Notes: generated from the sequence alone by a model not told the origin. 64,000 nucleotides of DNA from Bacteroidales bacterium (GCA_963676725.1 OY781463.1:1550991-1614990), one strand, 5' to 3'; shown: positions 1,219 to 16,954, numbered from the stretch's first letter. Translations and numbers: made by a program.

Positions 1219-1553
1219 AGTTTCTTAAGTAGCTTACAAATCAGGAATTCAATAATTGATTCGTCAGAAATATTGCTGTATTGCCTTTCCAGGGCAGTAC
1301 GCAATTTGGCCGCAGTAATCCCATAAGCCAGTCGGCTGATGCTGTTGGGGATTTCCTTTAAACGATAAGCAAAGAAATCGTTTATTTCCACCAGCAGCTT
1401 TTCATCAGACTTTGGATGATGCAATTCCACCACAGGTAAATTATGCCCATCCGAAGACGCAGTTCCGGAATGCAGATTTTCCCAGCCACGAGGCAAGGCA
1501 ATCATAAAAAAGGGTGTATTTGGTTTGCCATGTTTGATCCTAAGATGAGCCAT
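1215..1553 (-). CDS. Hypothetical phage protein
   Basis: ORF track 1215..1589; ATG 1553 (MAHLRIK) preferred; stop coupled to the primase start. Confidence 0.6.
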   Translation of the reverse strand: MAHLRIKHGKPNTPFFMIALPRGWENLHSGTASSDGHNLPVVELHHPKSDEKLLVEINDFFAYRLKEIPNSISRLAYGITAAKLRTALERQYSNISDESIIEFLICKLLKKL

Positions 1554-1625
1554 AATGTTAAGATTGTGCTTTACCGGACCCCAACACAAACCAATGGCCG
1601 GGGTGGGTAAAGCGATGCTGATCAG

Positions 1626-2129
1626 CTAAATCGTTTGTTTTAATTTTTGCGGTACTGTTTTAACAATCAATTGATTGTTCTTGCATCGAAGCGCTAAATG
1701 GTATAGGTGCAGCAATTTGTTTTTGCTCTCCTCATAAGACCTATTTGAAGACATTGGAAGGATGTACTCAAGAGCCGGGCGCATATTTATGATGTGTGCA
1801 CAGATTGGATGAACAGTTTTAAACTCCTTCATATAATCTATTTTGCGCTCAATCTCTTGCAGCTCAATCAATTTTTTCGCAGTGCGGTAAAAAGCCCTGT
1901 CACTCGTTTTCATCAGGATTTTTTTATGAGTAACAAACTTAATAAGCTGCATCATCAGGTACTCCTGCAATTGCTTATGGATCCATTGCACAGCATCCTG
2001 ATGCGCCAGAAAGCTTCCTTTGCGCTCAATGATTTTGCCCCGGGAAGTTACCGTTCCGATTGCCACACCAACCACACCAGTAGTAGGGCAAGGCATATAT
2101 TTCAAAAGATGAAAGTTATTCGGGATCAT
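1626..2129 (-). CDS. Hypothetical phage protein
   Basis: 167 aa ORF with a 4-bp overlap to the upstream ORF. Confidence 0.65.
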   Translation of the reverse strand: MIPNNFHLLKYMPCPTTGVVGVAIGTVTSRGKIIERKGSFLAHQDAVQWIHKQLQEYLMMQLIKFVTHKKILMKTSDRAFYRTAKKLIELQEIERKIDYMKEFKTVHPICAHIINMRPALEYILPMSSNRSYEESKNKLLHLYHLALRCKNNQLIVKTVPQKLKQTI

Positions 2130-2326
2130 GCTGCAGCCTCCTGTTTTCTGCGAATGATTTCAGCAATGCAAGCCTCGCGGAGCTGTGCCAGTCTATCGAT
2201 ACGCTTTTTCGTTTTTGCCGGATCTGTTTCAAACAATTTGCTGTGTCGTTCAATGATTGCCTGATTTGTGTACGCAGCATCCATTATTTCCAAATCGAGG
2301 TCCGTAAAATTCTCAAATGCTCTCAT
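2126..2326 (-). CDS. Small helical hypothetical phage protein
   Basis: 66 aa, operon-like spacing. Confidence 0.6.
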   Translation of the reverse strand: MRAFENFTDLDLEIMDAAYTNQAIIERHSKLFETDPAKTKKRIDRLAQLREACIAEIIRRKQEAAA

Positions 2327-2337
2327 AATTTGTTGGT

Positions 2338-2613
2338 TTAGAGTGGGAAAATATAATGTTTGTTGATTTCGATGGATTTGCCGTTAATTTCAACAATAGC
2401 CGAATAAGGAAAATTATTCAGGATTTTGGCCTCACAAAAAACACCGGAACCATCAGTATTGAAACTGACAGACACATCATCGCTCACGCATAAATCATTG
2501 CGAAATTTTCGCAGTGACAAGCGCTGAAGCATTATAACGAAGAACAGAAATACTATGACGAAAAGCACGCTGATAGTCAGGGTGATTCCTATTAATATGA
2601 GCAGTAGTTCCAT
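2338..2613 (-). CDS. Small single-pass membrane protein
   Basis: N-terminal hydrophobic stretch of about 30 aa followed by a short soluble tail. Confidence 0.55.
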   Translation of the reverse strand: MELLLILIGITLTISVLFVIVFLFFVIMLQRLSLRKFRNDLCVSDDVSVSFNTDGSGVFCEAKILNNFPYSAIVEINGKSIEINKHYIFPL

Positions 2614-2818
2614 TGTTTTTTGATTTGAATTTTTTAAACTCCTTGAATTCTAGCCATGTAGGGAAGTCTTTTTCCGGCATTTCAACCAGAACAGAATTTT
2701 TACTGCCGGAATAGGTATTCTTCAGGATCAGAAGATGCTCCAGAATTGCCCTATTTTCAGGAGAAGGATCCATTCTGATCCTGTTTTGTTGGTAGATAAT
2801 AAGCTTGGATAAATTCAT
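2495..2818 (-). CDS. Hypothetical phage protein (3' end overlaps the next ORF by 119 bp)
   Basis: ATG follows the LuxR gene; the long overlap suggests the C-terminus is an extension. Confidence 0.45.
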   Translation of the reverse strand: MNLSKLIIYQQNRIRMDPSPENRAILEHLLILKNTYSGSKNSVLVEMPEKDFPTWLEFKEFKKFKSKNNGTTAHINRNHPDYQRAFRHSISVLRYNASALVTAKISQ

Positions 2819-2857
2819 CTGCGTTTTTTTGGTAAGTGGTTTATGCGGGGGAACATA

Positions 2858-3412
2858 TTAAATCAGGTTTTTTTCAATAGCAAAGCGCGCCATTCCAACT
2901 TTGCTATAAACATTGATTTTCATCTGAATACGTTTTCGATGAGTATTTACAGTATTAATACTGATGCCTAAGCGATCAGCGATTTGTTTGTCCGGTAATT
3001 CTTCAGCAGTAAGCTTTAAGATTTGTAGTTCGCGAGGGGTGAGGTAGGTTTCTTTATTGACCCATAGCACACCACAAAGATGTTTTTGCGCCTGTTTTGG
3101 ACAAGAGCTGCGCAAAGGGCAGTCAAAATGTTCCGGGACAATGGTGCCATCTTTTTTGATGTCCGCCTCATTATCGAATCCGCCCAATTTACACCAGGCA
3201 TATTTACGAATCCGATCATTGTCTTCGGTGATACCAAGGATATCCAGCCCGATTTGAGCCTTCTTGTCTTCCTCTAGTGCTGCAGCAATTGCGAACTTAT
3301 GCTTTGCCGAAACCTCTTCGAAAGGTATTAAAGAGATTTTCACTTGATACAGCTCATTCTCGTGTACAAGGAATTCGCCATTTGATTTTTGAAAATAGTC
3401 CGGTAGTTTCAT
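2858..3412 (-). CDS. LuxR-type HTH regulator with a Cys-rich N-terminal region
   Basis: LTPRELQILKL...DKQIADRLGISINTVNTHRKRI (LuxR HTH), preceded by EHFDCPLRSSCP...LC. Confidence 0.85.
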   Translation of the reverse strand: MKLPDYFQKSNGEFLVHENELYQVKISLIPFEEVSAKHKFAIAAALEEDKKAQIGLDILGITEDNDRIRKYAWCKLGGFDNEADIKKDGTIVPEHFDCPLRSSCPKQAQKHLCGVLWVNKETYLTPRELQILKLTAEELPDKQIADRLGISINTVNTHRKRIQMKINVYSKVGMARFAIEKNLI

Positions 3413-3627
3413 TATTGAAGTTTTGAAAATATTTCTTTCAATTTTCTGCTTTCAGCTTTATTTTCTTCGATTAATTCTAAAGCAGTTTTTAATACTTTGA
3501 AGCTATTCCTTTTAGCACTTAGTACCATGCTCACATATGAAGGTGTACATCCAACCCTACCAGCTATAGTACTCTGACCGTTAGTTGGCAGCATTTTACG
3601 AAGTTTTTTAAGCTCCCTTTTTGTCAT
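3412..3627 (-). CDS. Cro-like HTH protein
   Basis: QSTIAGRVGCTPSYVSMVL HTH; divergent from the XRE repressor. Confidence 0.75.
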   Translation of the reverse strand: MTKRELKKLRKMLPTNGQSTIAGRVGCTPSYVSMVLSAKRNSFKVLKTALELIEENKAESRKLKEIFSKLQ

Positions 3628-3687
3628 GTTTTTCTAGGATTGATTCACGTTAAGAAATGTTATACCTTAGTTAAGGATTGGTTAACG

Positions 3688-3724
3688 CAAAGATAAAGTA
3701 ATACTTTAGTAAAAAGCAAGCTTT
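3688..3724. promoter_or_regulatory. Switch region: leftward promoter -7 box with operator palindromes
   Basis: TATCTTTG on the minus strand (3688-3695); perfect palindrome TAAAGTA-A-TACTTTA (3694-3708); related AAAGC-AA-GCTTT (3713-3724). Confidence 0.6.
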
Positions 3725-3746
3725 ATTAAAATAAAATTTTCATATT

Positions 3747-4106
3747 ATGCATATAGGGCAGAAGATCAGGGAGTTGATGCGAAAGAAAAATTTTAAGCAA
3801 AATCATTTAGCTGAGAAAATAGGTATAACAACACAGCGGATGGGGCAAATTTTAAAAGAGGATGATATTAGCATAAATAGGTTAAAACAAATATCTCAAG
3901 CCTTGGATGTACCATTTATAGAGTTTTTAGATGATTTTGATTTAATGGAAGATAGTTTGATTAATAGCGAAAAGGTGGAGATGCTACGAGATCAGCTTAG
4001 GGCTAAAGATGAAACAATACAAACACAGAAGGAGCTTATAGCAATATTAAGGAAGAATATTTCAGCTACGGGTGCTAGTGACAAAAAAACGGATGCTTCT
4101 TTATAG
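3747..4106 (+). CDS. XRE/CI-like repressor (HTH plus C-terminal coiled coil, no S24 domain)
   Basis: IGQKIRELMRKKNFKQNHLAEKIGITTQRMGQIL...LKQISQALDV. Confidence 0.85.
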   Translation: MHIGQKIRELMRKKNFKQNHLAEKIGITTQRMGQILKEDDISINRLKQISQALDVPFIEFLDDFDLMEDSLINSEKVEMLRDQLRAKDETIQTQKELIAILRKNISATGASDKKTDASL

Positions 4107-4500
4107 GAAGTAAGAATTAGTTGAAGTCATCCGGCGAAAATCGAGAAACAAAAAAAATGAAATTTCCATTTTGCGTAAATATTATGCAAAAGCATATATG
4201 GGCAAATTATGAGGAAAATGCATCATTTAAGTAATTAACACCTGATATTTTGGAAAAATCGTATTTAGGAATTCAATTAAATAGATACAAATTATGAAGA
4301 GAATATTAACCCAATTAGATAGCTTATTTTCAGGGCTTTATCTTTAATACCTTAAACTTATAATGAAGGAATGAGGCTATGAGCCGCATTCAAAAAAAAC
4401 ACACAAAATTAACCATATAAATTAATGTCTTCCCCAATATGTCTACTCAATTCATACACTCATAAAATACTGTAATACAGTAGATTATAGCGGGTGGTGG

Positions 4501-4519
4501 ATTCCCTTCATCCGCACAA
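4501..4519 (+). other. att site: duplicated tRNA 3' end (tRNA-Leu-like)
   Basis: ATTCCCTTCATCCGCACAA resembles the T-arm 3' half and acceptor end of a tRNA. No tRNA 5' half lies upstream, and a terminator follows directly. Confidence 0.65.
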
Positions 4520-4547
4520 AACCACCGGAATTTCCGGTGGTTTTTTT
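4518..4547 (+). terminator. Intrinsic terminator
   Basis: AAAACCACCGGAA-T-TTCCGGTGGTTTT stem followed by a T tract. Confidence 0.85.
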
Positions 4548-4741
4548 GTTTTATATACTTCCGATTACCCTGTTTTTTTTTCTCTAAATTCATATATGGG
4601 AGAATCAATATTTTCCGGTAAATTGCAAGGCTGTTGTGCAGAATGCAATGGTGTTCAGTTTTTTCCCCATTAACATTTTATAGGTAGATAAGTTGTTTGC
4701 CTGCAATCAGCCGCTTTTTTTATATTTAGCAATCGCACCAC

Positions 4742-4985
4742 CATCCTCGCCCCAGCGAGATATAGCGGATAGCCCGGCGGCTTTGGCCGCAACGCCCAGA
4801 AAAATATTTGTGATTCACATTAGATTATTTATATATTTGTGGTACAAGAAACAATAATTATAATGAACCCTCAAACCCAAATAAGCTGTTTCGTTGATCG
4901 GAAGTGTGTTATAGGAACTCCTGTTTCGTACAAAGTGGATGTATTGGTAATAGGGGTGTCTTATACACAGTAGTTATGTGCAAGC
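4742..4985 (+). repeat. Modular unit copy A (hairpin element, promoter, leader ORF, GTT site)
   Basis: CATCCTCGC..GCGAGATATAGCGGATAGCCCGGCGGCTTTGGCCGCAACGCCC; TTTG(4807)-N21-TATATTTG(4832); leader ORF; TATACACAGTAGTTATGTGCAAG. Confidence 0.9.
4863..4973 (+). CDS. 36-aa leader peptide of copy A
   Basis: MNPQTQISCFVDRKCVIGTPVSYKVDVLVIGVSYTQ*; homologous ORFs occur in copies B, C and E. Confidence 0.55.
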   Translation: MNPQTQISCFVDRKCVIGTPVSYKVDVLVIGVSYTQ

Positions 4986-5013
4986 TTATTGAGCCATCTG
5001 TCAACAAAATAAC

Positions 5014-5280
5014 ATGGATAAAGAAAGAGCAGAAAAATTGATTTTAGAAAATCTCCAGACAATAAATTCATTGGAGAATAAACCTAATTTGAAATGATAA
5101 TTAATGAAGTTAACAATCATGATATTGAAAAATTCAACCATGATTTTATTTTAAAAAACGTAAGAAACCCCTTGGATCAGTTTGGAGGTATCGCATGAAA
5201 ATTTTTGAAATAAAAACAACAAAAGGTGAATATATCAGCGGTATTGCGTTGGATATAGTTACTAAAGGTGAACATATAAG
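5014..5280 (+). pseudogene. Fragmented cassette gene, PAS-like remnant
   Basis: Short broken frames MDKERAEKLILENLQ.../...KIFEIKTTKGEYISGIALDI. Confidence 0.35.
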
Positions 5281-5344
5281 TAGTTGTCTTTAATGCTGGA
5301 GAGAAACACAGACAATATGTCTAAATAGTATAAAAAAAGTTAAC

Positions 5345-6214
5345 TTGACTCGTCAAAACAAAATAAAAATATATTTATCTCAACCTTATCCTTTTTATTA
5401 TCGAGGAAATAATCTTTGGATAATAGCTGGTCTTTTATTTTTAATGTCCGTTACGTTCAATTATATTTTTGAACCTTTTAATGTGTATGTGCCTGAGCAT
5501 AAGTTCAACTACTTTTGGATATCGTTTATTCATGCCTGCAGTCCTGCATTAATTATTGGTTTATTCTCCATATATCCAACAAAACCAAAAACCGAAGAAA
5601 ACTGGAGTGTTCAAAAGGAAATAATTTTGATAGCGTTTTTTCTTTTATTGGTGGGTATTGCTCAATTTTTAATTCGTGATTTCATTTACAATAACCCGAA
5701 TAATTGGTCCTGGCGTTATTTATATGAAGAAATTAGAAATTCATTTTTAATAGGAAGCCTATTTGCAGTATTGTTAACATCCTTAAATCACAACAGGTTA
5801 AATAAAAAGCACATAAAGAACGCCAATGCCATAAATCTTTCCCATAGGGTTAAAAAAGCTAAAACTAATCTTTCTGTTTTAATTACAACTCAATTGAAAA
5901 GTGATGACTTTAAATTGAATTTGGATAGTTTTCTATTTGCTAAAGCTGAAGGAAACTATGTTGTATTGTTTTTAAATGAGCATGCTACTAACAAATTAAT
6001 AAAACGAATTACATTAAAAGAATTAGAAAAAATTCTAACCCCATATTCAAACATCAAAAAAACCCATAGGTCATACCTGGTTAATTTACACCAGATAAAA
6101 AGTGTTACAGGTAATGCGCAAGGATATAAATTAGAACTCAATAATTACCACGAAAAGATACCTGTTTCCAGAAACATGATTAAAGAATTTGAATCAAAGT
6201 TTAATGCTGTTTAA
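5345..6214 (+). CDS. Membrane-anchored LytTR DNA-binding regulator
   Basis: Four TM segments, then FAKAEGNYV...ITLKELE...KTHRSYLVNL...IPVSR. Confidence 0.9.
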   Translation: MTRQNKIKIYLSQPYPFYYRGNNLWIIAGLLFLMSVTFNYIFEPFNVYVPEHKFNYFWISFIHACSPALIIGLFSIYPTKPKTEENWSVQKEIILIAFFLLLVGIAQFLIRDFIYNNPNNWSWRYLYEEIRNSFLIGSLFAVLLTSLNHNRLNKKHIKNANAINLSHRVKKAKTNLSVLITTQLKSDDFKLNLDSFLFAKAEGNYVVLFLNEHATNKLIKRITLKELEKILTPYSNIKKTHRSYLVNLHQIKSVTGNAQGYKLELNNYHEKIPVSRNMIKEFESKFNAV

Positions 6215-6226
6215 TTCAATATTTGC

Positions 6227-6260
6227 TATTCGTCACAAAAGCTTGTCAGTCGAACCAAAA
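6227..6260 (+). promoter_or_regulatory. Putative LytTR direct-repeat site
   Basis: TATTCGTCACAAAA and CAGTCGAACCAAAA, 20 bp apart, upstream of the acyltransferase. Confidence 0.4.
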
Positions 6261-6309
6261 CAGTTTTTTGCGTTGAGTATCAAATTACTTTTAACCAAAA
6301 ATTAAAATT

Positions 6310-7437
6310 ATGCGTAGATACGATTTAGATTGGTTAAGAGTGATAGTTTTTGCATTACTCATTTTTTATCATGTCGGAATGTTTTTTGTTCCATGGGATT
6401 TTCATATTAAGAACAACAATATTTACCATTGGCTAATATATCCGATGTGGTTTTTGAATCAATGGCGATTACCTATTTTATTTGTTATTTCAGGTATGGG
6501 GACTTATTATGCCTTGCAAAAAAGAACAGGAAAGCAATTTGCATGGGAACGAATAAAAAGGCTTTACATACCTTTAAATGTTGGCATGCTTTTAATCATT
6601 CCACCTCAAGTATATATCGAAAGACAGGTTAACAGTCAATTTATAGGAAGTTATTTTGACTTTTGGCCTTCTAAAGCATTTATTGGAATATATCCGAATG
6701 GAAATATGAGTTGGCATCATCTGTGGTTTTTGCCCTATTTATTATTGTTTTCTTTAATTCTAATGCCTTTGTTTTTATACTTAAAAAATCATCCAAACAA
6801 CGTTTTTATTACATGGTTAAATAACCTAATTAAAAACCCTTTAGGTTTGTATGTTTTCATCATTCCCTTGTATTTTATTGAAGCCTTTATTGAGCCATTT
6901 TTTCCAGTAACTCACGCCTTAATTGGCGATTGGTTTACAATTATTAACTGTATAACACTTTTCTTTTATGGATTTTTATTGATAACTGTTAAAAATTCTT
7001 TCTGGTTAGCAGTTGAGAATTTTCGAAAACGCTTTTTACTAACAGGAATAATAAGTTTTGCAATCATGTTATTAATAACCCACAATTTTAAGGACTCCGA
7101 CATTAGGCATTTTACAGAGGCTTTTTTTAAAGTTTTAAACTTATGGTCATGGATTTTAGCTTTATTTGGATTTGCTGCTAAACATTTTAATAAGAATAGC
7201 AAAATATTGAGCTATTCAAACGAAGCTGTTTATCCATTTTATATATTACATCAATCTGCAATGATAGTAGTTGCTTATTTTCTTATAGATTTAAATTGGT
7301 CGTTAGGATTAAAAGCTTCAATAATGATTTTAGGAACATTCGGGATATCATGGTTACTTTATGAGTTCCTAATTCGCAGATGGAAATATATAAGACCATT
7401 GTTTGGATTAAAGAAAGCACTAAAAGACAACAATTAA
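6310..7437 (+). CDS. Acyltransferase-3 family (OpgC/MdoC-like) membrane protein
   Basis: RRYDLDWLRV...FYH, LFVISG, HHLWFLPYL, YPFYILHQ; about 10 TM segments. Confidence 0.9.
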   Translation: MRRYDLDWLRVIVFALLIFYHVGMFFVPWDFHIKNNNIYHWLIYPMWFLNQWRLPILFVISGMGTYYALQKRTGKQFAWERIKRLYIPLNVGMLLIIPPQVYIERQVNSQFIGSYFDFWPSKAFIGIYPNGNMSWHHLWFLPYLLLFSLILMPLFLYLKNHPNNVFITWLNNLIKNPLGLYVFIIPLYFIEAFIEPFFPVTHALIGDWFTIINCITLFFYGFLLITVKNSFWLAVENFRKRFLLTGIISFAIMLLITHNFKDSDIRHFTEAFFKVLNLWSWILALFGFAAKHFNKNSKILSYSNEAVYPFYILHQSAMIVVAYFLIDLNWSLGLKASIMILGTFGISWLLYEFLIRRWKYIRPLFGLKKALKDNN

Positions 7438-7578
7438 GCATCGTTTTTCGGCCTGAGCCGGAATATGTGCTTTGTGTTGAACGAAACTGGTGAACAACAT
7501 ATACTGGGGAATCAATTTTCCGTATTTTTTCTGCAAAATGGCCATTGTCGTGAGAATTTTCACCTTGCGACAGCTTTT

Positions 7579-7780
7579 GGCGGCTTTGGCCGTAACGCCC
7601 AAAAAAATATTTGTGATTCACATTATATTATTTAAATTTGTAGTGCAAGAAACAATATTGATAATGAACACTCAAACCCCAATAAGCTATTTTCTTGATA
7701 GGAAGTGTGTTAATCTTATTTTGTATATTGTAGGTGTGTTGGTGATTGAGGGGGATATATTGTAATTAGTAGCCAGTTGA
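7579..7780 (+). repeat. Modular unit copy B
   Basis: GGCGGCTTTGGCCGTAACGCCC; TTTG-N19-TAAATTTG; TGTGATTCACA; leader ORF 7664-7765. Confidence 0.9.
7664..7765 (+). CDS. 33-aa leader peptide of copy B
   Basis: MNTQTPISYFLDRKCVNLILYIVGVLVIEGDIL*. Confidence 0.5.
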   Translation: MNTQTPISYFLDRKCVNLILYIVGVLVIEGDIL

Positions 7781-7800
7781 ACAAAACTAATTTAACCAAA

Positions 7801-8355
7801 ATGACAGAAATAAAACATAAAAACTTAGGTATTTGGGATGTTCAAAAAAAATCTGAATACTGGAAAGTGTTGGCGAAAAATATACATGCAGATTTTAAAA
7901 TAATAACAACAGTTTCAAAAGACTTCAATAGATTGGTTTTAAAAGTAGAATATAAGAATGTATTTATTTCTTTTACTGAAACTGATACAAAACCTCTTTT
8001 TGTTAATTGTGAATTTGCTCGATCCAGAAACCTGACTTGGTTTGAAATATCGAAAAGTGATTTTATTGAGAGATTAATGAATAAGTTTAGCAAAAGCAAG
8101 ATAAACTCAAGCAATATAGAGTTTAATAAGAAGTACATTTCAAAAACAATTAATAACTATAAAATCAAGTCGATTATCAATAATAAAATCATTACCGAGA
8201 TGATTCTAAAACAAGACTTAACGTTTATCGGTGGAGAAAAAGGGAAAAATGGAGACTTTATTTTAAGGTTAAACATTCATAGAAACGTAAATAATCTGCC
8301 ACAGTTGGAGGCAGTTTATGATTTAACGACAATTCTTATAGATGAATTATATTGA
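7801..8355 (+). CDS. Hypothetical protein (cassette-like)
   Basis: ORF track 7777..8355; ATG at 7801; very AT-rich. Confidence 0.65.
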   Translation: MTEIKHKNLGIWDVQKKSEYWKVLAKNIHADFKIITTVSKDFNRLVLKVEYKNVFISFTETDTKPLFVNCEFARSRNLTWFEISKSDFIERLMNKFSKSKINSSNIEFNKKYISKTINNYKIKSIINNKIITEMILKQDLTFIGGEKGKNGDFILRLNIHRNVNNLPQLEAVYDLTTILIDELY

Positions 8356-8427
8356 AAAAAGCGCCTGAAAAAAAATAGTTCATTTGACAGAAAGTGTAGA
8401 TATGTTTTCGAAATGTTTGCTCGAGTA

Positions 8428-8640
8428 GAAAGCCCGGCGGTAATCCGCAACGCTCAAGAAAATATTTGTAATTCACATTAGATTATTTATATATTTGTGG
8501 TACAAGAAACAATAATTATAATGAACCCTCAAACCCCAATAAGCTGTTTCGTTGATCGGAAGTGTTTTATAGGATATACTGTTTCGTATAGAGCAGGTGT
8601 ATTGGTAATAGGGTGTCTTTTACACAGTAGTATGCAACTA
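8428..8640 (+). repeat. Modular unit copy C
   Basis: GAAAGCCCGGCGGTAATCCGCAACGC; TTTG-N21-TATATTTG; near-identical to copy A through TACACAGTAG. Confidence 0.92.
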
Positions 8641-8682
8641 TTAGAAGATGTAATGCTGAATATTAAAAATATAAACAAATGA
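8521..8682 (+). CDS. Extended leader peptide of copy C, coupled to the next gene
   Basis: MNPQTPISCFVDRKCFIG...; a 1-nt deletion relative to copy A extends it to an ATGA overlap at 8679-8682. Confidence 0.5.
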   Translation: MNPQTPISCFVDRKCFIGYTVSYRAGVLVIGCLLHSSMQLLEDVMLNIKNINK

Positions 8683-9104
8683 TTATGAAAAAGATTTTGA
8701 TTGTACTAATATTGTGCGGAGTGAACCTTATCTCATTTGGTCAGGTAGTAAATAATTGTAACCTCATTTTAAATAATGATTCTTCATCTTTAAACGCCAC
8801 ATTAGAAGGGAAACAAATTATCCTAAATTTTCAAAAAACAGACGTTCTTAGCATCACTTTTGAAGAACTTAAAACAGATATTTCTAAAAAAATGCTAGTT
8901 ATCACATCAGATTCAAATCATAACGAGATATTGATTGGAACATTTAATAAAACTGATATAAAAGGTGATTCAAGTTACACTCTGGATATTCCATTTGGAA
9001 AACTAGACAAACTTTGTTTTGGAACTGATAATATCTATACGATTCTAATTAGGGATGAAAAAGGGGAACAAATTTTGTTGAGATTTAAGCTGTTAAAGGA
9101 GTAA
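8679..9104 (+). CDS. Secreted hypothetical protein
   Basis: Signal peptide MKKILIVLILCGVNLISFG-Q. Confidence 0.7.
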   Translation: MIMKKILIVLILCGVNLISFGQVVNNCNLILNNDSSSLNATLEGKQIILNFQKTDVLSITFEELKTDISKKMLVITSDSNHNEILIGTFNKTDIKGDSSYTLDIPFGKLDKLCFGTDNIYTILIRDEKGEQILLRFKLLKE

Positions 9105-9239
9105 AAAACAGTTGCTATTAAAAAAATTAGTGCATTTGGCAGATAGTGCTAATATTGAAGATAATAACAATAAATAAACATAGTAGTATATTGAAAACTT
9201 GGAGCGTTGAAATGCCAAACACACTAAATATAAACCCCC

Positions 9240-9314
9240 GCGTTAGGGATAGCAGCGGCATCCTCGCCACAGCGAGATATAGCGGAAAGCCCGGCGGCTT
9301 TGGTCGCAACGCCC
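9240..9314 (+). ncRNA. Candidate structured RNA or ssDNA element (resembles my recollection of the Flavo-1 motif)
   Basis: Closing stem GCGTT/AACGC encloses the hairpins CTCGC-CACA-GCGAG and GCGGC-TTTG-GTCGC; loops vary between copies while stems are kept. Family identity is not verified. Confidence 0.45.
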
Positions 9315-9435
9315 AAGAAAATATTATAGCCATAGAGTCCCATCTGGGAACTGTTTTATTAGTATAAGAATCTCTTGCTTAGAAATTAAAATTGCGATTC
9401 ACAACAGATTCGTTGCATTTGTAGTGCAAGAAACA
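9240..9435 (+). repeat. Modular unit copy D (complete hairpin element and promoter, no leader ORF)
   Basis: GCGTTAGGGATAGCAGCGGCATCCTCGCCACAGCGAGATATAGCGGAAAGCCCGGCGGCTTTGGTCGCAACGCCC, then TTGCGATTCACAA...CATTTGTAGTGCAAGAAAC. Confidence 0.88.
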
Positions 9436-9527
9436 AAGTGTTCTTCTATTAAAGTGAAAATTACTAAAGCGCCACTACGCTTATACTCAGCTTATGAGTA
9501 CATTTGTACAGGAATGTTGAAAAAATC

Positions 9528-10331
9528 ATGATGTTGAAAAAATTTATCCTCTTTTGTTTTTTAAGCGGTTTGATTGTATTGGTTTCTTGTACTAAAAAGC
9601 AGACTGCCGCAGAAATACTCGAACGAACAATCATTTCTATCGATACAATTGAATCGGTTTATTATAAACAAGATATGTGGAGGACAAATCCGCGAAAGCT
9701 TAATGATACTCTATTCCGATTTCGTGAGATGTATTTCAAAAGACTGCTCACCGATTCTATTGTAGGTGTTAAAGGACATTGGTATATGTATTTAGAGGAC
9801 AAGCAAAATGCAGCCTATGAAGATATTTAAGATGGTAAAAGACTGCTTCGGATCAATAATCGTGATCGTATTGCACGGGTTTATGATCTGGAAAAATATC
9901 CTGATTGGAAAAGAAAGCATTTTTGGAGCCATAATACGCCATACGGAATGCAATATGAATTTAAGTATATGTTGAAAAATACAGACTCTTATGCCATTGA
10001 AAGATTGAACGATACCATTATTGGTGCCACGGATTGTTATCAAATTGTTGTTTTATTAGAGGATAAAGAAACAATGCCCGGCTTCGCCACAGATCTTGAA
10101 GAGAGTGAAGGAAGCATTTCGAAGACTTTATATTTCATCGATAAGGATACATTTTGCCCAATTGGAATGAAAAGTGAATTTTATTCGCGTGATAATCAAC
10201 GCCAAAAGATATTTATTGATCAACGGTATTATGCGTTCAGGTTCAACCTGAATGTTGATGAGAATACTCTGTTGAATACATCTACTGAGGCAATAACCGG
10301 AATTGAGCAAATAGAGATGAAACCGGAATAG
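9528..10331 (+). pseudogene. Lipoprotein interrupted by one in-frame TAA
   Basis: Lipobox LVSC; track ORFs 9504..9830 and 9948..10331 are in the same frame; EDI*DGKRLL at 9828-9830. Confidence 0.75.
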
Positions 10332-10502
10332 ATGGGGTTAATAATAAGATGCTAATGAGGTTTTTATAAAATATTTTGATGCGCCTGCAATACACGAGGT
10401 TTAGGTATAGATTGGAAGAATATTGAAGCGAAGGAAGCAATAATAGAGACTATTTTTCAGCTTGAAAATACCAGGAATGCTGCCAAATCCTGTTGTAAAT
10501 TT

Positions 10503-10660
10503 AATTAGATTTTATACATTTGTGGATCAAGAAACAAAAAATGAACAATCAAACCCCAATATTTTTTTTGTTGCATGGAAGTGCGTTATAGGATATCATA
10601 CTTACAATAAAAGGAAATATTGTAATAGGGGAGGCTTATGTGTACTAGTTTAGTAGTCAG
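10503..10660 (+). repeat. Modular unit copy E (promoter and frameshifted leader)
   Basis: ATTAGATTTTATACATTTGTGGATCAAGAAAC...ATGAACAATCAAACCCCAATA...GGAAGTGCGTTATAGGA...GTAATAGGGG. Confidence 0.8.
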
Positions 10661-10706
10661 TCTGGGGAAAAATCAATCAATAGTTTAATAACATAAATAG
10701 ATCAAA

Positions 10707-11759
10707 ATGAAAGAAATAAAGATTATTCTTGTCGCATTAGTAATTTGCATTGCATCAAATTTTAATCAAATCTTTGCTTGTTCCAGAGTCGTTTATCAAG
10801 GTTCAAACGGAACAATTATTACCGGTAGAACTATGGACTGGAAAGGGGATATTCCGGCAAACTTATGGGTTTTCCCAAAAGGAATGGAGCGAAATGGTAA
10901 GGTTGGAAGCGCTTCTATTGAATGGAAATCAAAATATGGTAGTGTAGTTACAAGCTCTTGGAATATTGCGGCAACAGATGGAATGAATGAAAAAGGTCTT
11001 GTAGGAAATTTATTGTGGCTTTTAGAATCCCAATATCCTAAATTTGAGAAGGATAGCGGAACGAAAGGATTAGCAATAAGTCTTTGGTTGCAATATGTAC
11101 TGGATAATTTCGCTACAGTGGATGAAGCCGTTAAAGAGCTTCGTAAAGAGGAATTTGTGGTCGTGTCATCTTATATTCCTGATACAAAAATATACACAGC
11201 ACTTCATTTATCAATTTCGGATAACACAGGCGACAATGCAATTTTTGAATATATAAATGGGGAATTAGTAATTCATCATGATACATCTTACGTAGTAATG
11301 ACAAATTCACCAGTTTATGAAGATCAATTAGCTATTAATAATTACTGGAAAGATATTTCGGGAACTATTATGCTTCCCGGTACAAATCGAGCAGCAGACC
11401 GTTTTGTAAGAGGGTCTTTTTATATAAATGCACTCCCGAAAACTGACGATACGAAAATTGCTGTTCCTGCAGTTTTTAGTGTTATCCGAAATCTTTCTGT
11501 TCCTTTTGGTATTTCAACACCAAATCAACCAAATATTTCATCGACCCAATGGAGAACAGTATCCGATCAAAAAAACCTAGTTTATTATTTTGAAAATGTT
11601 CTTAATACGAATATTGTTTGGCTGGATTTTGCCAATTTAGATTTTAGTGAAAATGGGGAAATACTAAAACTCTCCTTGGAAAATCGGGAAAGTTATCCAG
11701 GCGAATCATCAAAATATTTAGTGGAAACGAAACCTTTTATACCATTGGGATTAGAATAA
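10707..11759 (+). CDS. Choloylglycine hydrolase / penicillin V acylase family Ntn-hydrolase
   Basis: Signal peptide then nucleophile Cys (A-CSR); GRTMDW, DGMNEKGL, MTNSP, DRFVR. Confidence 0.92.
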   Translation: MKEIKIILVALVICIASNFNQIFACSRVVYQGSNGTIITGRTMDWKGDIPANLWVFPKGMERNGKVGSASIEWKSKYGSVVTSSWNIAATDGMNEKGLVGNLLWLLESQYPKFEKDSGTKGLAISLWLQYVLDNFATVDEAVKELRKEEFVVVSSYIPDTKIYTALHLSISDNTGDNAIFEYINGELVIHHDTSYVVMTNSPVYEDQLAINNYWKDISGTIMLPGTNRAADRFVRGSFYINALPKTDDTKIAVPAVFSVIRNLSVPFGISTPNQPNISSTQWRTVSDQKNLVYYFENVLNTNIVWLDFANLDFSENGEILKLSLENRESYPGESSKYLVETKPFIPLGLE

Positions 11760-11802
11760 AAAAGCCCGAGCAGCTATAAGTTTAAATAAGTATTGTTAGG
11801 CG

Positions 11803-12708
11803 ATGCTAATATTAAATCACGGTATGAAACATTTGTTATTATTCATCATTTTGCTGCAAATCAATATACTAGACGCACAAAATAGCAGTATTACTGCAGG
11901 CACCTATGATTCCGGGATGATATATTATAACTACAATCCGGATACGGTACTTCCAGCTGGAGAGAATGGTATTTACTCTTGTTTTATTGATATAGACCTA
12001 AACTTTGATAGCATTTCGGATTATAAGATTACTAATTTAAATGCAAGTGGGCAGAATGCAAGCAATTACCAGGTTGAGATCGTGCCTTATAATGACAATG
12101 AATTTTCTTATCATAGAATTGATTCCAGTTATAATTACCTATTAGATACTGCTTATTACTATTTTGTGCCAAGCCCTGTTAATTATGGGGAAGAAATAAA
12201 CGATTCATATCTTTATACATCAACGGTTTCTTATTTATATATGGATAGATGGTCGTCAATATCTGCCTATTCCAATGAAATATTTGATTGGGATAATATT
12301 GGGCCAAAATATATAGCAATTAGAATGAATGTTGATGATACCTTGTATTATGGGTGGATTGGCATCGATATCTCAACCAAAGAAAGCCAAGGTGGAAGGT
12401 CGAAAGTTATTGTAAGCGAATATGCTTTATCAAAATTTTTACCGTCTGATATTTCTGATAAATATTATTTTCAACCCATTGAAATTTATCCAAATCCTGT
12501 GACATCGGATTTGAATATCAACCTACCTAAAAATTTTAGTTCAGGAAATATCTTAATATTGGATGTGTGTGGTGTAATTCGCAGAAAAATACAGGTTTTA
12601 AATACGGGATTGGTGCAAATTTCTGTTTCAGATTTAGAAAGTGGATCATATATACTAAGAATAGGAGGCAATGGCCAATTTTACTATAAAAAGATTATAA
12701 AACAATGA
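11803..12708 (+). CDS. T9SS-sorted secreted protein
   Basis: Signal peptide; C-terminal IYPNPV...LESGSYILRI...KKIIK. Confidence 0.85.
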   Translation: MLILNHGMKHLLLFIILLQINILDAQNSSITAGTYDSGMIYYNYNPDTVLPAGENGIYSCFIDIDLNFDSISDYKITNLNASGQNASNYQVEIVPYNDNEFSYHRIDSSYNYLLDTAYYYFVPSPVNYGEEINDSYLYTSTVSYLYMDRWSSISAYSNEIFDWDNIGPKYIAIRMNVDDTLYYGWIGIDISTKESQGGRSKVIVSEYALSKFLPSDISDKYYFQPIEIYPNPVTSDLNINLPKNFSSGNILILDVCGVIRRKIQVLNTGLVQISVSDLESGSYILRIGGNGQFYYKKIIKQ

Positions 12709-12892
12709 TTTTGAATGATTTTTGAATAATTTACCCATTTATTATCGAAGATAATTACTGCCTTTACCATAACAAAACACTTGCTTTTTAACATAGTTCA
12801 TCCAATGGTTCGCCATAGAGAAGAAACCAGATTGCCTTATGCAAATGAAATATAGACCTAAGCAGTGAAATATTTCAGCAGTCTAAACAAAT

Positions 12893-12942
12893 CTTGCGTA
12901 GAAATAAAATTGCGATTCACATTAGATTATTTATATTTGTGT
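12893..12942 (+). repeat. Modular unit copy F (promoter half only)
   Basis: CTTGCGTAGAAATAAAATTGCGATTCACATTAGATTATTTATATTTG matches copies D and A. Confidence 0.75.
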
Positions 12943-12981
12943 GATTCGAATATTGAAAAAGTCAATAATAAAATCTTAAAT

Positions 12982-13401
12982 ATGTTGAAAATTTCCTTAG
13001 AATATTGGAACGAACTCGCTCATCAAATACTTTTAATTAGTTCTTTATTGAGTGGTTTTTCGATTGCTTTAGTTGCAAATTTATTGGTTCATAAATCAAA
13101 AAGTCGAATCACAATAAGTACATTAAAAATAGCAACAATTGCTACAGGCTGCTTTCTTATTACGGTCTTTGCTATGACTAAAATTATAATGATGACAACA
13201 AATGGATATCCATTTGAAATAGCTGATAATGAATTAACAATGCCGCGTACGATTGGATCTTTAACTTTCTTTTTAGGCATTGTTTCTTTGTCGGCAGTTA
13301 TTGCATTAGCAGGGTGGACAAAATCAAAAAGTAGCGGGATATTTACAACTATTGTTGGTGTTTTAACACTTTTGGCAATATTATCAATGCTTGTTCGATA
13401 G
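12982..13401 (+). CDS. Four-TM hypothetical membrane protein
   Basis: ATG 12982 lies downstream of the copy F promoter; four hydrophobic segments. Confidence 0.75.
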   Translation: MLKISLEYWNELAHQILLISSLLSGFSIALVANLLVHKSKSRITISTLKIATIATGCFLITVFAMTKIIMMTTNGYPFEIADNELTMPRTIGSLTFFLGIVSLSAVIALAGWTKSKSSGIFTTIVGVLTLLAILSMLVR

Positions 13402-13544
13402 CACAGAAAACGGATGCCCTAAACAAAAGATCGAATGGAAATTGTTCAGATTATTCGTAGCACCCAGAAAAGAAAAACGCTAATTTTTTCTGCGTAGATT
13501 TCTTTTTCCGAGATATTTATTCCGTTTTTTTTCGGCTATAGCCT

Positions 13545-14138
13545 TTATTTTACCGCTTCAACAATTACCCAGCCTTTTTTATAAGTGAGGTCGGTTTTGA
13601 TGGTTTTAAAACCTGCTTCAGATAAAAATTCTTTGTATTCTTCCGAGTTTTTTATTTGTGCCAAATGCCACCATTTGCTGTTTTCTTTTGGATAACGATT
13701 GATTATCAGAAAACGCCCGTCATTCTTCAGATTGTTATGTACACGGGCGAGAGATTCGCGCAAAGGCTTCCAAAATTGAATCGTTTCAAAGGCTGTAATC
13801 AGGTCGGCATCCGATGCTTTTAAGTACAGCTGATCTACTGTTGTTGCTATGAATTCTAACCGATTTAGATTGCGGGAATCACTGTTGATCTTTTGCGATA
13901 ATTTGATCATTTCTTCTGAATGATCGATTCCAATGAGCGTATAATTCCTATTTTTTTTGGCCAGATAATTTATGAATTTGCCTCCACCACAACCAATATC
14001 CACTATGGTTGATCCTTCTTTTGGCAGTTTGTCGGCGAAATATTTAATATATGTCTGGGTGTGGAACAGATTCATCATTTTTCCTACAAATTGTCCTATG
14101 CGCCCATGTGGCTTTGCTCCCTGTGTTTCGATGCTCAT
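13545..14138 (-). CDS. Class I SAM-dependent methyltransferase
   Basis: IVDIGCGGG, GIDHS, ITAFETIQFW. Confidence 0.9.
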   Translation of the reverse strand: MSIETQGAKPHGRIGQFVGKMMNLFHTQTYIKYFADKLPKEGSTIVDIGCGGGKFINYLAKKNRNYTLIGIDHSEEMIKLSQKINSDSRNLNRLEFIATTVDQLYLKASDADLITAFETIQFWKPLRESLARVHNNLKNDGRFLIINRYPKENSKWWHLAQIKNSEEYKEFLSEAGFKTIKTDLTYKKGWVIVEAVK

Positions 14139-14517
14139 CTTTTATGAATTAATCGTGATAAATAGGTTCTGATTTTTTTCAAAGCTAATCAAATTTTGTG
14201 CACAACAATTTTTCTATCGAAATCCTTCATTTATTGATGATATAAGCCTGCTGTGGGTTTGTGTTTTGTTTTTTGAAAAACAAATTTTAATAGTTTTTAA
14301 GGACTCTTTTATTCGCTAAATATTTGTAGTTCTTGTAATATATTTTTGTGCAATTAAGAAAAAACGGATGCTTTCTGTCAGATCGATACGGGATTTTGAG
14401 GGAGGACCCAGCTAAATAATATAAATCGATTTTTGCGTGTATCCACAAAATATTTTGTAGTATATTAAATTTTTTATATCTTGCAACCAACATTAAATCA
14501 AAAAATTAGAAAAAACC

Positions 14518-16629
14518 TTGCGAAACAAAAGCAATAATATAAGAGCAGGTTTTATCAGCATACTGATTAACCCCTGGGTTCTGGCAATACCGATAGCCTT
14601 ACTTGTTATTGCTGTGCTGCCTGATATGCAAGAGCCTTATAAGCTGGAGCTGGTTCTAAAGCAAAAGGGCGATAAAACCCCACAGGCGGAGGAGTTTTTC
14701 ACAGACCTGAATAATGATGGCAATACAGAACGTATTGTTTCATTTTATAATGTTTCAGGCAATGCGGCATTAAAAGTGTGGACGACAGATCATCGGCTTA
14801 TTGATCAATACAATTGGCATGGCGTTTTTTTAAATAATTATAAATTTGTGCAGGTTTTTGACACCGATCATGATGGGAAAATGGAGGTGATATTTGGTCT
14901 ATTGCGCCACGATTCGGTTTTTATTGTTCAATTCAATCCTTTGCTGAAAACTGCACTGAATCATGAATATTTTGTTGAAAATCTCCCTGACTCTACCAAT
15001 CCCAATCAATCACCCTTTATATATGTTTCTTCGACAATGGATATAGATTCTGATGGCGTTAATGAGCTTTTTATTGAGCTTGCGGCACATCTCGAAAAAT
15101 CTCCCAGAAAGGCCATTGTTTTAAACACAAAAACAGGTGATATACTGAAATCTGACGATCTCGGAGCAAAAATTACCGGCTTATTTCCGGATCCCAGGTA
15201 TAAAGCCGGCGACGGTTATTTGGTTCAAACCAGGGCATCAGCAAATTTAAAACCATCAGAAGTAAGCTTTCTGCATGATCATAGCTCTTGGTTGTTGGGT
15301 TTTGATGCAAATATGAAATTGCGTGATACCTTACTTGAATATCCCTATCTTTTTTCAACAATCAAGTCATTGTTTTTTCGGAAGCAGAATAAGATTGTTG
15401 GTCTTGCACACAACCAATCACAAGAAGAAGTACTAGATAAAATTTTTATGGTCGATTCAAGCGGTTTTTTTGTCCGGGATTTCCCTCCTTCAGCTCATTA
15501 TTTTAAAGATATAGGCATTGTGCCTTTTTTCGAGGATTCTTCTCAGAAATACCTGTATTATAATGAGCAAGGGAATATTTTTATCCTAAAAGACACGGAG
15601 ATCATCAGCAATATCGATAAACATCAGGATGCAAGCACTCAGTTTATAGGAAGAGAACCATGCGAAATCAGTGGGGATGGCAAAAATGAATTTATTGCAA
15701 TGGATTTATTATCAGACGAATTGATTATCCTAAGCCATGACTTGAAACATAAGAGTATTCTCTCAGCCATAAATATCTCCGAAGAACACTTTTTTTCACC
15801 TTCCGTCCGCAGGAAACAGGGCGAAAAACCCCAGTTGTTCTTCAAGCTTCATGGGAACAACTATTATTATACCTATCAGGCCAATCCCTTGTATTATCTT
15901 CATTATCCGGTCTATTTGCTGATCTACCTTTTGATAACAGTCCTGATTTATCTTATGTGGAGCTATCAGAAAGCCCAATTGCAGAAAAAATACGAACTGG
16001 AACGAGCATTTGAGAGTTTACAACTGAAAACCCTTAAAAATCAGCTCGAACCGCATTTTATCTTCAATGCACTGAACGCCATAAACGCCACCATTGCCCA
16101 GGGTCAATACGAATCTGCGCAATACTACCTTTTACGCTTTAGTCGCTTAATGCAAAAATTGCTTTTCAAGTCCGATCAATTAACAGTTAGCCTTGAAGAC
16201 GAATTGGAATTTGTGGAAAATTACCTCGAGATTGAACGCCTGCGTTTTGGGGAAGAGCTGTATTTTGAAATCCATAAATCAGAGAATGTGCCCCCACAGA
16301 TCAGAATACCGAAAATGTTGGTGCAGTCTTTTGTTGAAAATGCGATAAAACACGGCCTAAAACCACTCAACCATAAAGGGCGTATTCTTATTGATGTGCA
16401 TATGGGCGGAAAACACGTACATATAAACATATCAGACAACGGGATCGGGCGTGAAGCTGCCGCACAGAAGAATACCAATAGCGGTAAAGGCCTCAGCATC
16501 GTGCAAAAAATGCTTCTCCTATACGAAAGGCAACAGAAAAAACAAATCAAATACTACTATACCGACCTTTTCGATGATGAAGGCCGGGCTGCAGGCACAA
16601 AAGTAAGCGTTCAGCTGCCTGTAATATGA
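14518..16629 (+). CDS. LytS-type sensor histidine kinase with an FG-GAP-like extracellular domain
   Basis: Two TMs, DxDxDG repeats, LKNQLEPHFIFNALN, VENAIKHG, DNGIG. Confidence 0.9.
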   Translation: MRNKSNNIRAGFISILINPWVLAIPIALLVIAVLPDMQEPYKLELVLKQKGDKTPQAEEFFTDLNNDGNTERIVSFYNVSGNAALKVWTTDHRLIDQYNWHGVFLNNYKFVQVFDTDHDGKMEVIFGLLRHDSVFIVQFNPLLKTALNHEYFVENLPDSTNPNQSPFIYVSSTMDIDSDGVNELFIELAAHLEKSPRKAIVLNTKTGDILKSDDLGAKITGLFPDPRYKAGDGYLVQTRASANLKPSEVSFLHDHSSWLLGFDANMKLRDTLLEYPYLFSTIKSLFFRKQNKIVGLAHNQSQEEVLDKIFMVDSSGFFVRDFPPSAHYFKDIGIVPFFEDSSQKYLYYNEQGNIFILKDTEIISNIDKHQDASTQFIGREPCEISGDGKNEFIAMDLLSDELIILSHDLKHKSILSAINISEEHFFSPSVRRKQGEKPQLFFKLHGNNYYYTYQANPLYYLHYPVYLLIYLLITVLIYLMWSYQKAQLQKKYELERAFESLQLKTLKNQLEPHFIFNALNAINATIAQGQYESAQYYLLRFSRLMQKLLFKSDQLTVSLEDELEFVENYLEIERLRFGEELYFEIHKSENVPPQIRIPKMLVQSFVENAIKHGLKPLNHKGRILIDVHMGGKHVHINISDNGIGREAAAQKNTNSGKGLSIVQKMLLLYERQQKKQIKYYYTDLFDDEGRAAGTKVSVQLPVI

Positions 16630-16954
16630 TGCCCCCAAAAAAAAGAGTTATGTGGGCGGTCAGAAGACATAGGCAGATTTATTTTTCTCGATTAATTGCG
16701 ATTTGCTTTATTGAATTCCCTAGGAAACATAAAAATATCTGTTCTTAGAATGCATATATTTGCTATATTTATGCCATATTTTGGTTTTGTTTGAAAAGGA
16801 GTAGAGTTTATGAGACTCCTTCATTTTTAGGGTCGACTCAAGTTTTCAATGAACTGATTTTCGTGCCAAATTGTTTTGATGCGGCAATAAGTAATAACTA
16901 TGGAGAATAATGGGTAGTATTATATCTTGATACGCTCCCCCAATATAGCAGACT

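Follow-up and report, generated by a model that had tools for sequence, protein, structure and literature searches.

A stretch of 64,000 nucleotides from the chromosome of a Bacteroidales bacterium (GCA_963676725.1 OY781463.1:1550991-1614990; hereafter the window, in whose numbering positions are given unless genome positions are named) carries, from about 4.6 to 13 kb, a series of mutually different genes on the plus strand, most of them preceded by a copy of the same short repeat. The repeat is a promoter-plus-leader unit of ~170 nt, termed PL here, and a repeat search places the six-copy family at 4799, 7602, 8457, 9383, 10484, and 12901. An initial annotation had described six copies of one unit, each upstream of a different AT-rich gene; the repeats are real, with copies A, B, C, and E nearly full-length, but copy D is truncated and F comprises the promoter part only. 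The genes are indeed AT-rich (27-35% GC, against 39% for the genome), on the plus strand, and different behind each unit. The window holds a recombinase-less, partly decayed array beside a repeated tRNA-Leu 3' end (the likely attR of a neighboring island), and the reading favored here, at a probability of about 0.75, is that 4.6-13 kb is an integron-like cassette array without a recombinase of its own, a local form of the rAID-type arrays of the order.

At the left end of the array, where all features lie on the plus strand, copy A of the GC-rich module G (4726..4798; two small hairpins; an nhmmer family of 13 copies) stands ahead of PL unit A (4806..4975; nhmmer E 5e-48), the leader of which ends in ...CACAGTAG|TT, with the core at 4969-4975 (the bar marks the presumed crossover). 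Unit A is followed by module S (4985..5289; an nhmmer family of 6 copies), which has no long open reading frame (ORF), the one at 5015-5098 encoding 27 aa, and which carries a second core, AAGTAG|TT, at 5278-5285. Cassette 1 (5283..7482) begins there with the R'-like sequence GTTGTCTTTA at 5283-5292, encodes a LytTR membrane protein (5345-6214) and an acyltransferase_3 protein (6310-7437; both assigned by Pfam), and has the R''-like sequence AAAAGACAAC at 7422-7431, the R'-like and R''-like sequences showing 9/10 inverse complementarity. A short attC-like hairpin site (7422-7482) completes the cassette, with its R' sequence GTTGAAC at 7476-7482, and in a DNA fold CAACA/TGTTG and AAGCA/TGCTT pair round a GC hairpin (z-score -1.8). 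This short site forms the first ~55 nt of module X (7427..7579; an nhmmer family of 20 copies), the rest of which is a conserved spacer leading into PL unit B (7609..7757; nhmmer E 1.9e-29, model positions 2-159; degenerate 3' end). The gene behind unit B encodes 192 aa (7777..8355; 184 aa from the first ATG), with no Pfam or PADLOC match to the product and no recognizable attC 3' of the gene.

PL unit C (8464..8631; nhmmer E 1.9e-41), the core of which is mutated to AGTAGTA, precedes a gene for a 141-aa protein with a hydrophobic N-terminus and no Pfam match (8679..9104). The long attC-like site that follows (module Y, 9113..9251) matches the covariance model R2 of this site type over its full length (positions 1-138; 59.1 bits, E 1e-11), has ...CGCG|TTAGGG as its 3' R', and forms a 15-bp stem in a bottom-strand DNA fold (z-score -1.6). 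Copy D consists of module G (9243..9315) and a truncated PL (9381..9482; positions 3-99 of the sequence-only PL model R1, E 1.7e-4) that retains the promoter and the first leader part and has no core; the LolA-like lipoprotein gene behind it (9504..10331; weak PF17131 match, E 0.004) contains one in-frame stop and is likely a pseudogene. PL unit E (10493..10650; nhmmer E 1.3e-21) belongs to a divergent subfamily, with the core ACTAG|TT ending at 10650, and is followed by a choloylglycine-hydrolase-family amidase (10707..11759) and a protein with a type IX secretion system C-terminal sorting domain (11803..12708), both recognized by Pfam. Fragment F, the promoter part alone (12909..12950; nhmmer model positions 3-44, E 5.5e-4), stands ahead of a membrane-protein gene (ATG 12982 to 13401) that is common to all four other strains. 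Module G is complete at A and D, partial at B and C, and absent at E and F; the GC-rich element, at first taken for part of the unit, is a module in its own right.

Iterated nhmmer searches recovered 42 PL copies on both strands of the 5.19-Mb chromosome, and a BLAST search with window unit A as query gave 44 genome matches. The copies cluster at genome 831-837 kb, 1513-1564 kb (window included), 2267-2273 kb, and 2430-2450 kb, with many singletons besides. Each unit consists, in order, of a palindrome, TGTGAnTCACA, over a -33 TTG, a -7 TAnnTTTG, and a ~130-nt leader ending in ...CTTATACACAGTAGTT. The promoter motif of the initial annotation is borne out by the alignment of 36 copies, in which the -33 TTG and the -7 TAnnTTTG are the best-conserved columns and the -7 box ranks first; the short leader ORF assigned to the unit, in contrast, is not a conserved peptide, because the ATG is absent in 4 of 29 full copies and 1-nt indels are present. 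Homology between copies stops at ...AGTAGTT (AG|TT), beyond which the alignments hold nothing common to the copies, and in contigs of other strains the loose ends begin at window 4975, the 3' end of unit A; this confirms the abrupt end at a GTT junction noticed at the outset. PL orientation is always that of the downstream gene, and in 34 of the 42 copies a same-strand ATG ORF of at least 60 aa begins no more than 100 nt from the PL end. At window 4810-4822 a perfectly palindromic sequence, TGTGATTCACA, extends over the -33 box; it is found in the main PL subfamily and partly retained elsewhere, and it is a candidate operator for a common regulator. A profile search of relatives with R1 found 9-15 PL copies in each of four congeners, none in three sister-genus genomes, and one weak match in 33 genomes from other families.

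The nucleotides on either side of the genes are related to each other. The PL AG|TT is followed by 7 nt that recur, as their reverse complement, directly before an AAC at the cassette stop codon, as in the intergenic regions of the trkH array (order PL-ORF-X-PL-ORF-X), where GTTGTGTGTA goes with TACACACAAC and GTTATGTGGC with GCCACATAAC. Among 68 cassette starts with a core (28 from this genome and 40 from congeners, six own copies without a recognizable core, PL unit C among them, having been dropped), the reverse-complement 10-mer was found exactly in 17 and with one mismatch in 23, compared with 0.2% and 6.1%, respectively, when the tails were permuted (n=1829). The total is 40/68 versus 6.3% in controls, and 33 of the 40 matched boxes lie close to the stop (-9 to +15 nt) of an ORF that encodes at least 50 aa. 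This complementarity is the R'/R'' relation of an integron cassette, the trace that remains when a circular cassette has inserted into a docking site.

Behind the AAC box, hairpin sites of the attC type are found. The arm complementarity score reaches at least 12 in 20 of 39 such regions versus 1% in shuffled controls, and the distal end of the site lies ~127 nt past the box, at ...(A)CC|GTT. In an alignment of 18 sites that had been pre-selected for arm complementarity, RNAalifold proposed 16 pairs, 15 of them with compensatory changes; paired cells amounted to 93.8% versus 62.2% in shuffled alignments and both-side changes to 84 versus 26, the covariation value was reached by 0 of 500 shuffles, and slid registers collapsed. 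The features of an integron attC site (R''...AAC and GTT...R', arms, conservation at the level of structure) are therefore present in this long type, from which R2 was built; a shorter type is formed by the start of module X. The design is not attC-free, because the cassettes carry attC-like hairpin sites, two of which, the short one at 7422-7482 and the long one at 9113-9251, the initial annotation had overlooked within the window itself.

A recombinase that could act on such sites is encoded elsewhere in the genome. As first noted, the array contains no integrase; none lies inside it or within the first 22 kb of the window, and the tyrosine recombinase nearest to the array is the unrelated integrase of the neighboring island, ~49 kb upstream. 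A PF00589 search of the genome gave 10 matches, among them two 485-aa tyrosine recombinases that are 98% identical, each with its stop codon inside the -33 box of a PL copy, so that the search for a co-occurring recombinase suggested in the initial annotation had a positive outcome. The two recombinase platforms are 97.7% identical over 2168 nt; this identity ends at most ~20 nt from the PL 3' core, 3 nt ahead of the first ORF, and each platform has a different first ORF. Two more PL copies (genome 4910905 and 1000645) lie directly behind what is left of a recombinase 3' end, and the copy at genome 2625684 has the same upstream module in the alignment and no tblastn match to the recombinase. 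The linkage extends to the congeners, where an intact orthologue (G004) and broken orthologues (G001-G003) likewise abut a PL. With two cognate recombinases ending in PL copies, the core of the earlier proposal of a Pc/attI-like platform served by a recombinase in trans stands; the array in the window, for its part, is partly decayed.

Of 201 genomes of the order, this one included, 92 have a homologue of the recombinase (E<=1e-40), and many of these homologues lie near contig ends. The protein just reaches the NCBIfam model NF040815 'tyrosine recombinase/integron integrase' (220.8 bits versus a cut-off of 220), and the integron-integrase models were not reached (TIGR02249, 181 bits versus a cut-off of 265). 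The protein also has matches to the XerD/XerA family, and its closest solved structures are archaeal XerA and, next, VchIntIA. In the AlphaFold model (pLDDT 82.8), matches to Xer/IntI/Cre-type folds are confined to the C-terminal two thirds; residues 1-200 (gene at genome 2796423-2797880) are predicted to form two tandem beta-beta-alpha-beta-beta-alpha-beta repeats, for which the structure search with the model gave no fold match. This N-terminal extension is found in some homologues (466-499 aa) and missing from many of ~380 aa. Direct repeats 3' of recombinase homologues were sought in five named Bacteroidota contigs, a sample biased to contigs that assembled through, and each yielded at most one short two-copy family. 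The congeners (G001-G004) also have a 317-aa tyrosine recombinase, ~29% identical to the array recombinase, which is encoded on the strand opposite to copies of module X at a distance of 1.3-2.2 kb; G004 has several copies of it (G004:C2:479065-479883 and four more), and its segment (L240) is GC-rich, holds two genes, and is flanked by ~290-nt direct repeats.

The distribution of R2 sites separates two kinds of array. This genome has 38 attC-like sites by R2, of which 8 lie behind each intact recombinase on the same strand, 9 behind one remnant, and the remainder in small groups elsewhere, with one in the window (9113-9251); the genome therefore holds two complete elements and several recombinase-less arrays. 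In the complete elements, the recombinase is followed by a single PL beside its gene and then by ORF-attC repeats, whereas in the recombinase-less arrays PL recurs ahead of most cassettes. There, PL sits within ORF-less segments, made of the remainder of X plus PL or of G plus PL, that start with an attC-type G|TT and end with the PL AG|TT. In the regular array at genome 2264-2273 kb, module X starts ~4-10 nt past the stop codons; at least 7 of the 13 module G copies begin right at the ...CG|TT of an attC-type arm that lies upstream (by eye); and of the 5 module S copies that have a core, 4 have a tail with 9/10 complementarity to a box further downstream, which ends in AAC or AAT.

Some details of these modules deserve mention. 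Most X copies contain a ~25-nt GC hairpin (...CCTGTCCCGAGAGCTTCGGGGAAAC...) that is absent from the window X (position 7483), one X copy of the genome 2267-2272 kb set has an extra ~60-nt insert, and the spacer holds small indel hairpins. Introns targeting attC sites are known in integrons. Group II intron pieces are located at L125:7691-8220 (genome ~2801.7-2802.2 kb; minus strand) and also at L071:440-522, with scores of 93 bits (RF02001), 44.5 bits (RF01998), and 38.9 bits (RF00029); the pieces lie within the array behind recombinase 1, opposite in direction to the cassettes, and a related intron copy (genome 2812556-2813032) ends at the start of an attC-like site (2813013).

The left border of the array is a tRNA attachment site, as the initial annotation had recognized. 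ARAGORN finds no tRNA in the window, but positions 4503..4519 (plus strand) exactly repeat the 3' end of a tRNA-Leu gene (blastn-short 17/17, E 5e-4, 85-kb search space), and the 16-mer at 4503-4518 occurs genome-wide only at 1505668 and 1555493. The tRNA-Leu gene itself is at genome 1505600-1505682, ~50 kb upstream of the window repeat, with a tyrosine integrase match beside it at 1506509-1506940, so that 4503-4519 is likely the attR of a ~50-kb island on the left side. Because of this repeat of the tRNA-Leu 3' end, the array can be said to begin just outside the island attR; two of the four other strains have little or no depth over window 2000-4500, that is, over the island end. The island (genome 1505600-1555509, up to 4519 in the window; ~50 kb) encodes its own 411-aa tyrosine integrase and contains PL copies at 1513040, 1541254, and 1546885, module G, and attC-like sites at 1514139, 1514749, and 1515660. 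With all three kinds of module on board, the island shows that an integrative element can carry such arrays.

Cassette content varies between strains. Contigs from all four other strains cover the right flank, from 12915 onwards, and in one strain, X16, depth is almost nil over 5.5-7.0 kb and zero over 12020-12520; the content missing from it comprises 5.5-7.0 kb and 11.77-12.9 kb. One X16 contig matches 9274-11769 and then continues into unlike sequence, and a second reaches 12915 from the right, followed by 879 nt of unlike sequence. The depth gaps and divergent contigs mean that cassette content differs by strain, and such contigs cannot prove the mechanism. Short-sided joints (e.g., 4975 to 7427 and 4764 to 8429) were discarded as cross-mapping of other repeat copies. 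Between species, a DNA search of window 1-20000 against four congeners and a tblastx search of the 20 kb upstream of the congener PAS-kinase homologues found no shared flanks, and no cross-species empty site could be defined.

The cargo is equally variable. By Pfam, the products of the first genes behind the PL copies are unrelated to each other, and many are orphans. Those identified include HsdM (a type I methylase) twice, a C5 methylase, HNH, endonuclease I, NACHT, LRR-Roc-COR, Phd, ParD, PIN, a dGTPase-like HD protein, peptidases, and an aminotransferase, and 6 of 10 hand-picked cargo proteins match PADLOC families. In tblastn searches (E<1e-10), 31 of 40 genes behind congener PL copies had no homologue in this genome; only 2 of the 40 have a homologue here that is likewise preceded by PL, both HsdM. 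As the cargo is mostly absent from relatives, PL marks a flexible part of the genome.

These findings can be assembled into the following model. A cassette would begin with the TT of AG|TT and comprise a short 5' untranslated region, one or two ORFs, and, at the stop codon, an N7'-AAC box able to pair with the GTT-N7 at its own start; an attC-like imperfect hairpin would come next, ending in ...CC G|TT. PL would be an attI-like docking site combined with a promoter of the Bacteroidota type (TTG ... TAnnTTTG). Cassettes joined to PL at AG|TT would therefore each be read from the PL ahead, with PL presumably firing as a promoter, and the ORF-less PL segments may themselves move as promoter cassettes. 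Recombination is proposed to take place at G|TT, with the attC-like sites acting as folded single strands, and the 485-aa Xer/XerA-like recombinases, ~1.2 Mb and ~2.7 Mb away, would be the likely catalysts in trans.

Several observations weigh against this model. Only cassette 1 in the window retains the 9/10 end complementarity; cassette C has 6 contiguous nt of it (by eye) and the long attC-like site behind, and for units A and E the best R'' candidates have 2 mismatches, the commonest outcome with permuted tails. The window array is decayed, with the core of C changed to GTA, the PLs of D and F truncated, and the LolA-like gene broken. A blind scan of the 61-kb region for end pairs was at noise level, with 14 plus-strand pairs compared with 17 on the other strand and 10-11 after shuffling, so that the end-pair signature is informative only if the search starts from PL ends. 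A scanner for ungapped AAC...GTT hairpins likewise returned noise (4 matches versus 2-5 in controls). The covariation result comes from 18 sites pre-selected for arm complementarity, and taken singly the sites do not fold with clearly better energies than shuffles (z-scores +0.2 to -1.9). PL itself shows neither covarying internal pairing (75.4% paired versus 74.8% in shuffles) nor any structure in RNAalifold on 36 copies. IntI-type integrases have an insertion with a role in reading extrahelical bases; the alignment of the recombinase with VchIntIA (2a3v) splits in two, leaving chain residues ~208-240 without a counterpart, and the enzyme lacks the ~30-aa IntI-specific insertion. In a cross-species comparison (L109 versus L113), finally, homology spans PL plus gene and ends at the stop codon, which fits a promoter that travels with its gene equally well as it fits the cassette model.

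The likeliest alternative is a fossil array, once built by the integron-like system, in which the cassettes would now be immobile and the PLs would serve only as ordinary promoters, spread or kept alike by duplication and homologous recombination between copies. The retention of end complementarity in one of ~6 window cassettes, the mutated core of C, the truncation of D and F, and the stop in the LolA-like gene would be expected of such a relic, PL copies that are 88-93% identical over 170 nt are targets for homologous exchange, and the L109/L113 break falls at a stop codon, not at a core. The genome nevertheless has two intact recombinase genes with platforms that diverge near the core, other PL arrays show exact 10/10 complementarity, and strain X16 differs from this genome inside the array, leaving the fossil explanation somewhat unlikely.

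PL could also be, in the main, a cis-regulatory RNA, such as a shared leader, a riboswitch-like 5' untranslated region, or a small RNA family, that marks a regulon, in which case its sharp 3' end would be an RNA feature. The conserved ~130 nt on the same strand behind a conserved promoter, close to start codons in 34/42 copies, would suit this explanation, RNAalifold with ribosum scoring did propose nested stems, and a shared regulator might bind the palindrome at the -33 box. The stems have no covariation support, however, and Rfam searches at the gathering and E<=1 thresholds gave no match to PL; the restriction to the genus, together with the conserved promoter spacer, points to common descent, and the cargo genes are unrelated to each other and for the most part missing from sister species. 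As this explanation also leaves the complementarity of the post-PL nucleotides to the box behind the gene unaccounted for, it appears improbable. It is very improbable that PL represents a terminal piece of an insertion sequence or a miniature inverted-repeat transposable element with an outward promoter, for although the 42 copies are dispersed on both strands and the multi-copy 317-aa recombinase of congeners lies near module X, the flanked alignments show no terminal inverted repeats or target duplications, orientation always matches the downstream gene, the upstream boundary varies (recombinase gene, X, or G), and the 317-aa recombinase has no comparable match in this genome.

For the integron-like cassette array, the closest described system is rAID-1 of Bacteroidales. 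In the accessible text of the rAID reports, rAID-1 combines a XerD-family recombinase with short, low-GC genes that all run in its direction; the motifs between the genes are conserved and called 'reminiscent of integrons', and the clusters are found in 226 of 423 Bacteroidales genomes (10.1101/471110; PMC12247911); a rAID is defined there by a recombinase upstream of at least two co-directional genes of <41% GC, and its biogenesis mechanism is called open (PMC12247911). The presence in about half of the order resembles that of the recombinase family described here (92/201 genomes), and the definition fits the platform at genome 2796-2802 kb, where a recombinase of 35.8% GC is followed by plus-strand ORFs of 30.0, 28.3, and 33.0% GC; it does not fit the window, which has no recombinase. 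The present system differs in that its cargo is not visibly composed of orphan immunity genes (Pfam names no immunity family among the 42 first genes behind PL, many of which have no match at all), in that most of its arrays, at more than 20 loci, are detached from the recombinase, and in that a 170-nt promoter/attI-like module is repeated ahead of individual cassettes. The main text of the rAID preprint, as far as it was available, does not contain the words attC, hairpin, palindrome, inverted, or promoter (10.1101/471110), and literature searches on rAID-1 and on integron-like arrays, attC, and recombinase-less attC clusters (CALINs) in Bacteroidetes turned up no account of a multiplied promoter/attI module. 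The system is thus a genus-specific variant of rAID-type integron-like arrays, of which the multiplied promoter-bearing docking module appears to be a new feature.

Related arrays are found elsewhere in the order. One genome (G036) has a full-length homologue of the recombinase (33% identical; 44% GC) followed by at least 12 co-directional ORFs of 25-33% GC; its palindromic units, each extending from an AAC to a GTT, are recognized by R2. Another genome (G112) is similar. The G036 locus (L233) also contains several ~375-nt ORF-less cassettes, 92-98% alike (oriented coordinates 2065-2510, 6637-7453, and 8183-8627), that start with GTTGTGCCC, complementary to the end box GGGCACAAC; they are a possible counterpart of the promoter-bearing ORF-less segments described above. 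Searched against 150 further genomes of the order, R2 has matches (E<=1e-5) in 101, namely in 63 of 69 recombinase-positive genomes versus ~38 of 81 others (hand count), a co-occurrence that is not a formal test because the genomes are mutually related.

With integrons and CALINs, the arrays share presumed G|TT crossover cores, cassette-specific R''/R' complementarity, imperfect hairpin sites kept in structure and not in sequence, a putative promoter-bearing docking site beside the recombinase, recombinase-less arrays elsewhere, and group II intron pieces within an array. They differ from integrons in an enzyme that lacks the IntI-specific insertion and is closest to archaeal XerA, that has an extra ~200-aa N-terminal region and is co-directional with the cassettes, and in the multiplication of the attI/Pc-like module. 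Sedentary chromosomal integrons with promoter-bearing cassettes are similar in that distal expression is independent of a single Pc; in contrast, one module here combines promoter and crossover core, and so is docking-site-like as well. Module G, a module separate from PL, by itself resembles the Flavo-1 RNA (RF01705), with full-length matches in 3 copies (28-31 bits) that stay below the gathering score of 42; these sub-threshold matches lie at window 9229-9300 (28 bits), L041:309-378, and L043:2260-2326. Flavo-1 may belong to such cassette systems as a component acting at the DNA or the RNA level.

A broader reading, put forward tentatively and as a possibility that falls short of an even chance, is that rAID-type arrays are a second lineage of true integrons, in which an Xer/XerA-like enzyme without the IntI insertion performs single-strand attC recombination, and that the attI-plus-promoter module has itself become a mobile ORF-less cassette in this genus, landing behind attC sites. 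If this is true, each captured gene would obtain its own promoter, and arrays would stay expressed and could be maintained far from the recombinase. The signatures suggest a way round the classic limit of integrons, in which only cassettes near Pc are expressed. Integrons have been treated as nearly absent from Bacteroidetes; the accessible text of the IntegronFinder 2.0 preprint gives earlier finds as In0 elements only, with one complete integron in Salinibacter (10.1101/2022.02.28.482270). The question of rAID biogenesis gains concrete sites to work on, namely the end complementarity at G|TT, the covarying hairpin, and a recombinase fused to the docking/promoter module. As the cargo includes restriction-modification, toxin-antitoxin, and candidate anti-phage genes, these arrays may be a main reservoir of flexible defense genes in marine Bacteroidales.

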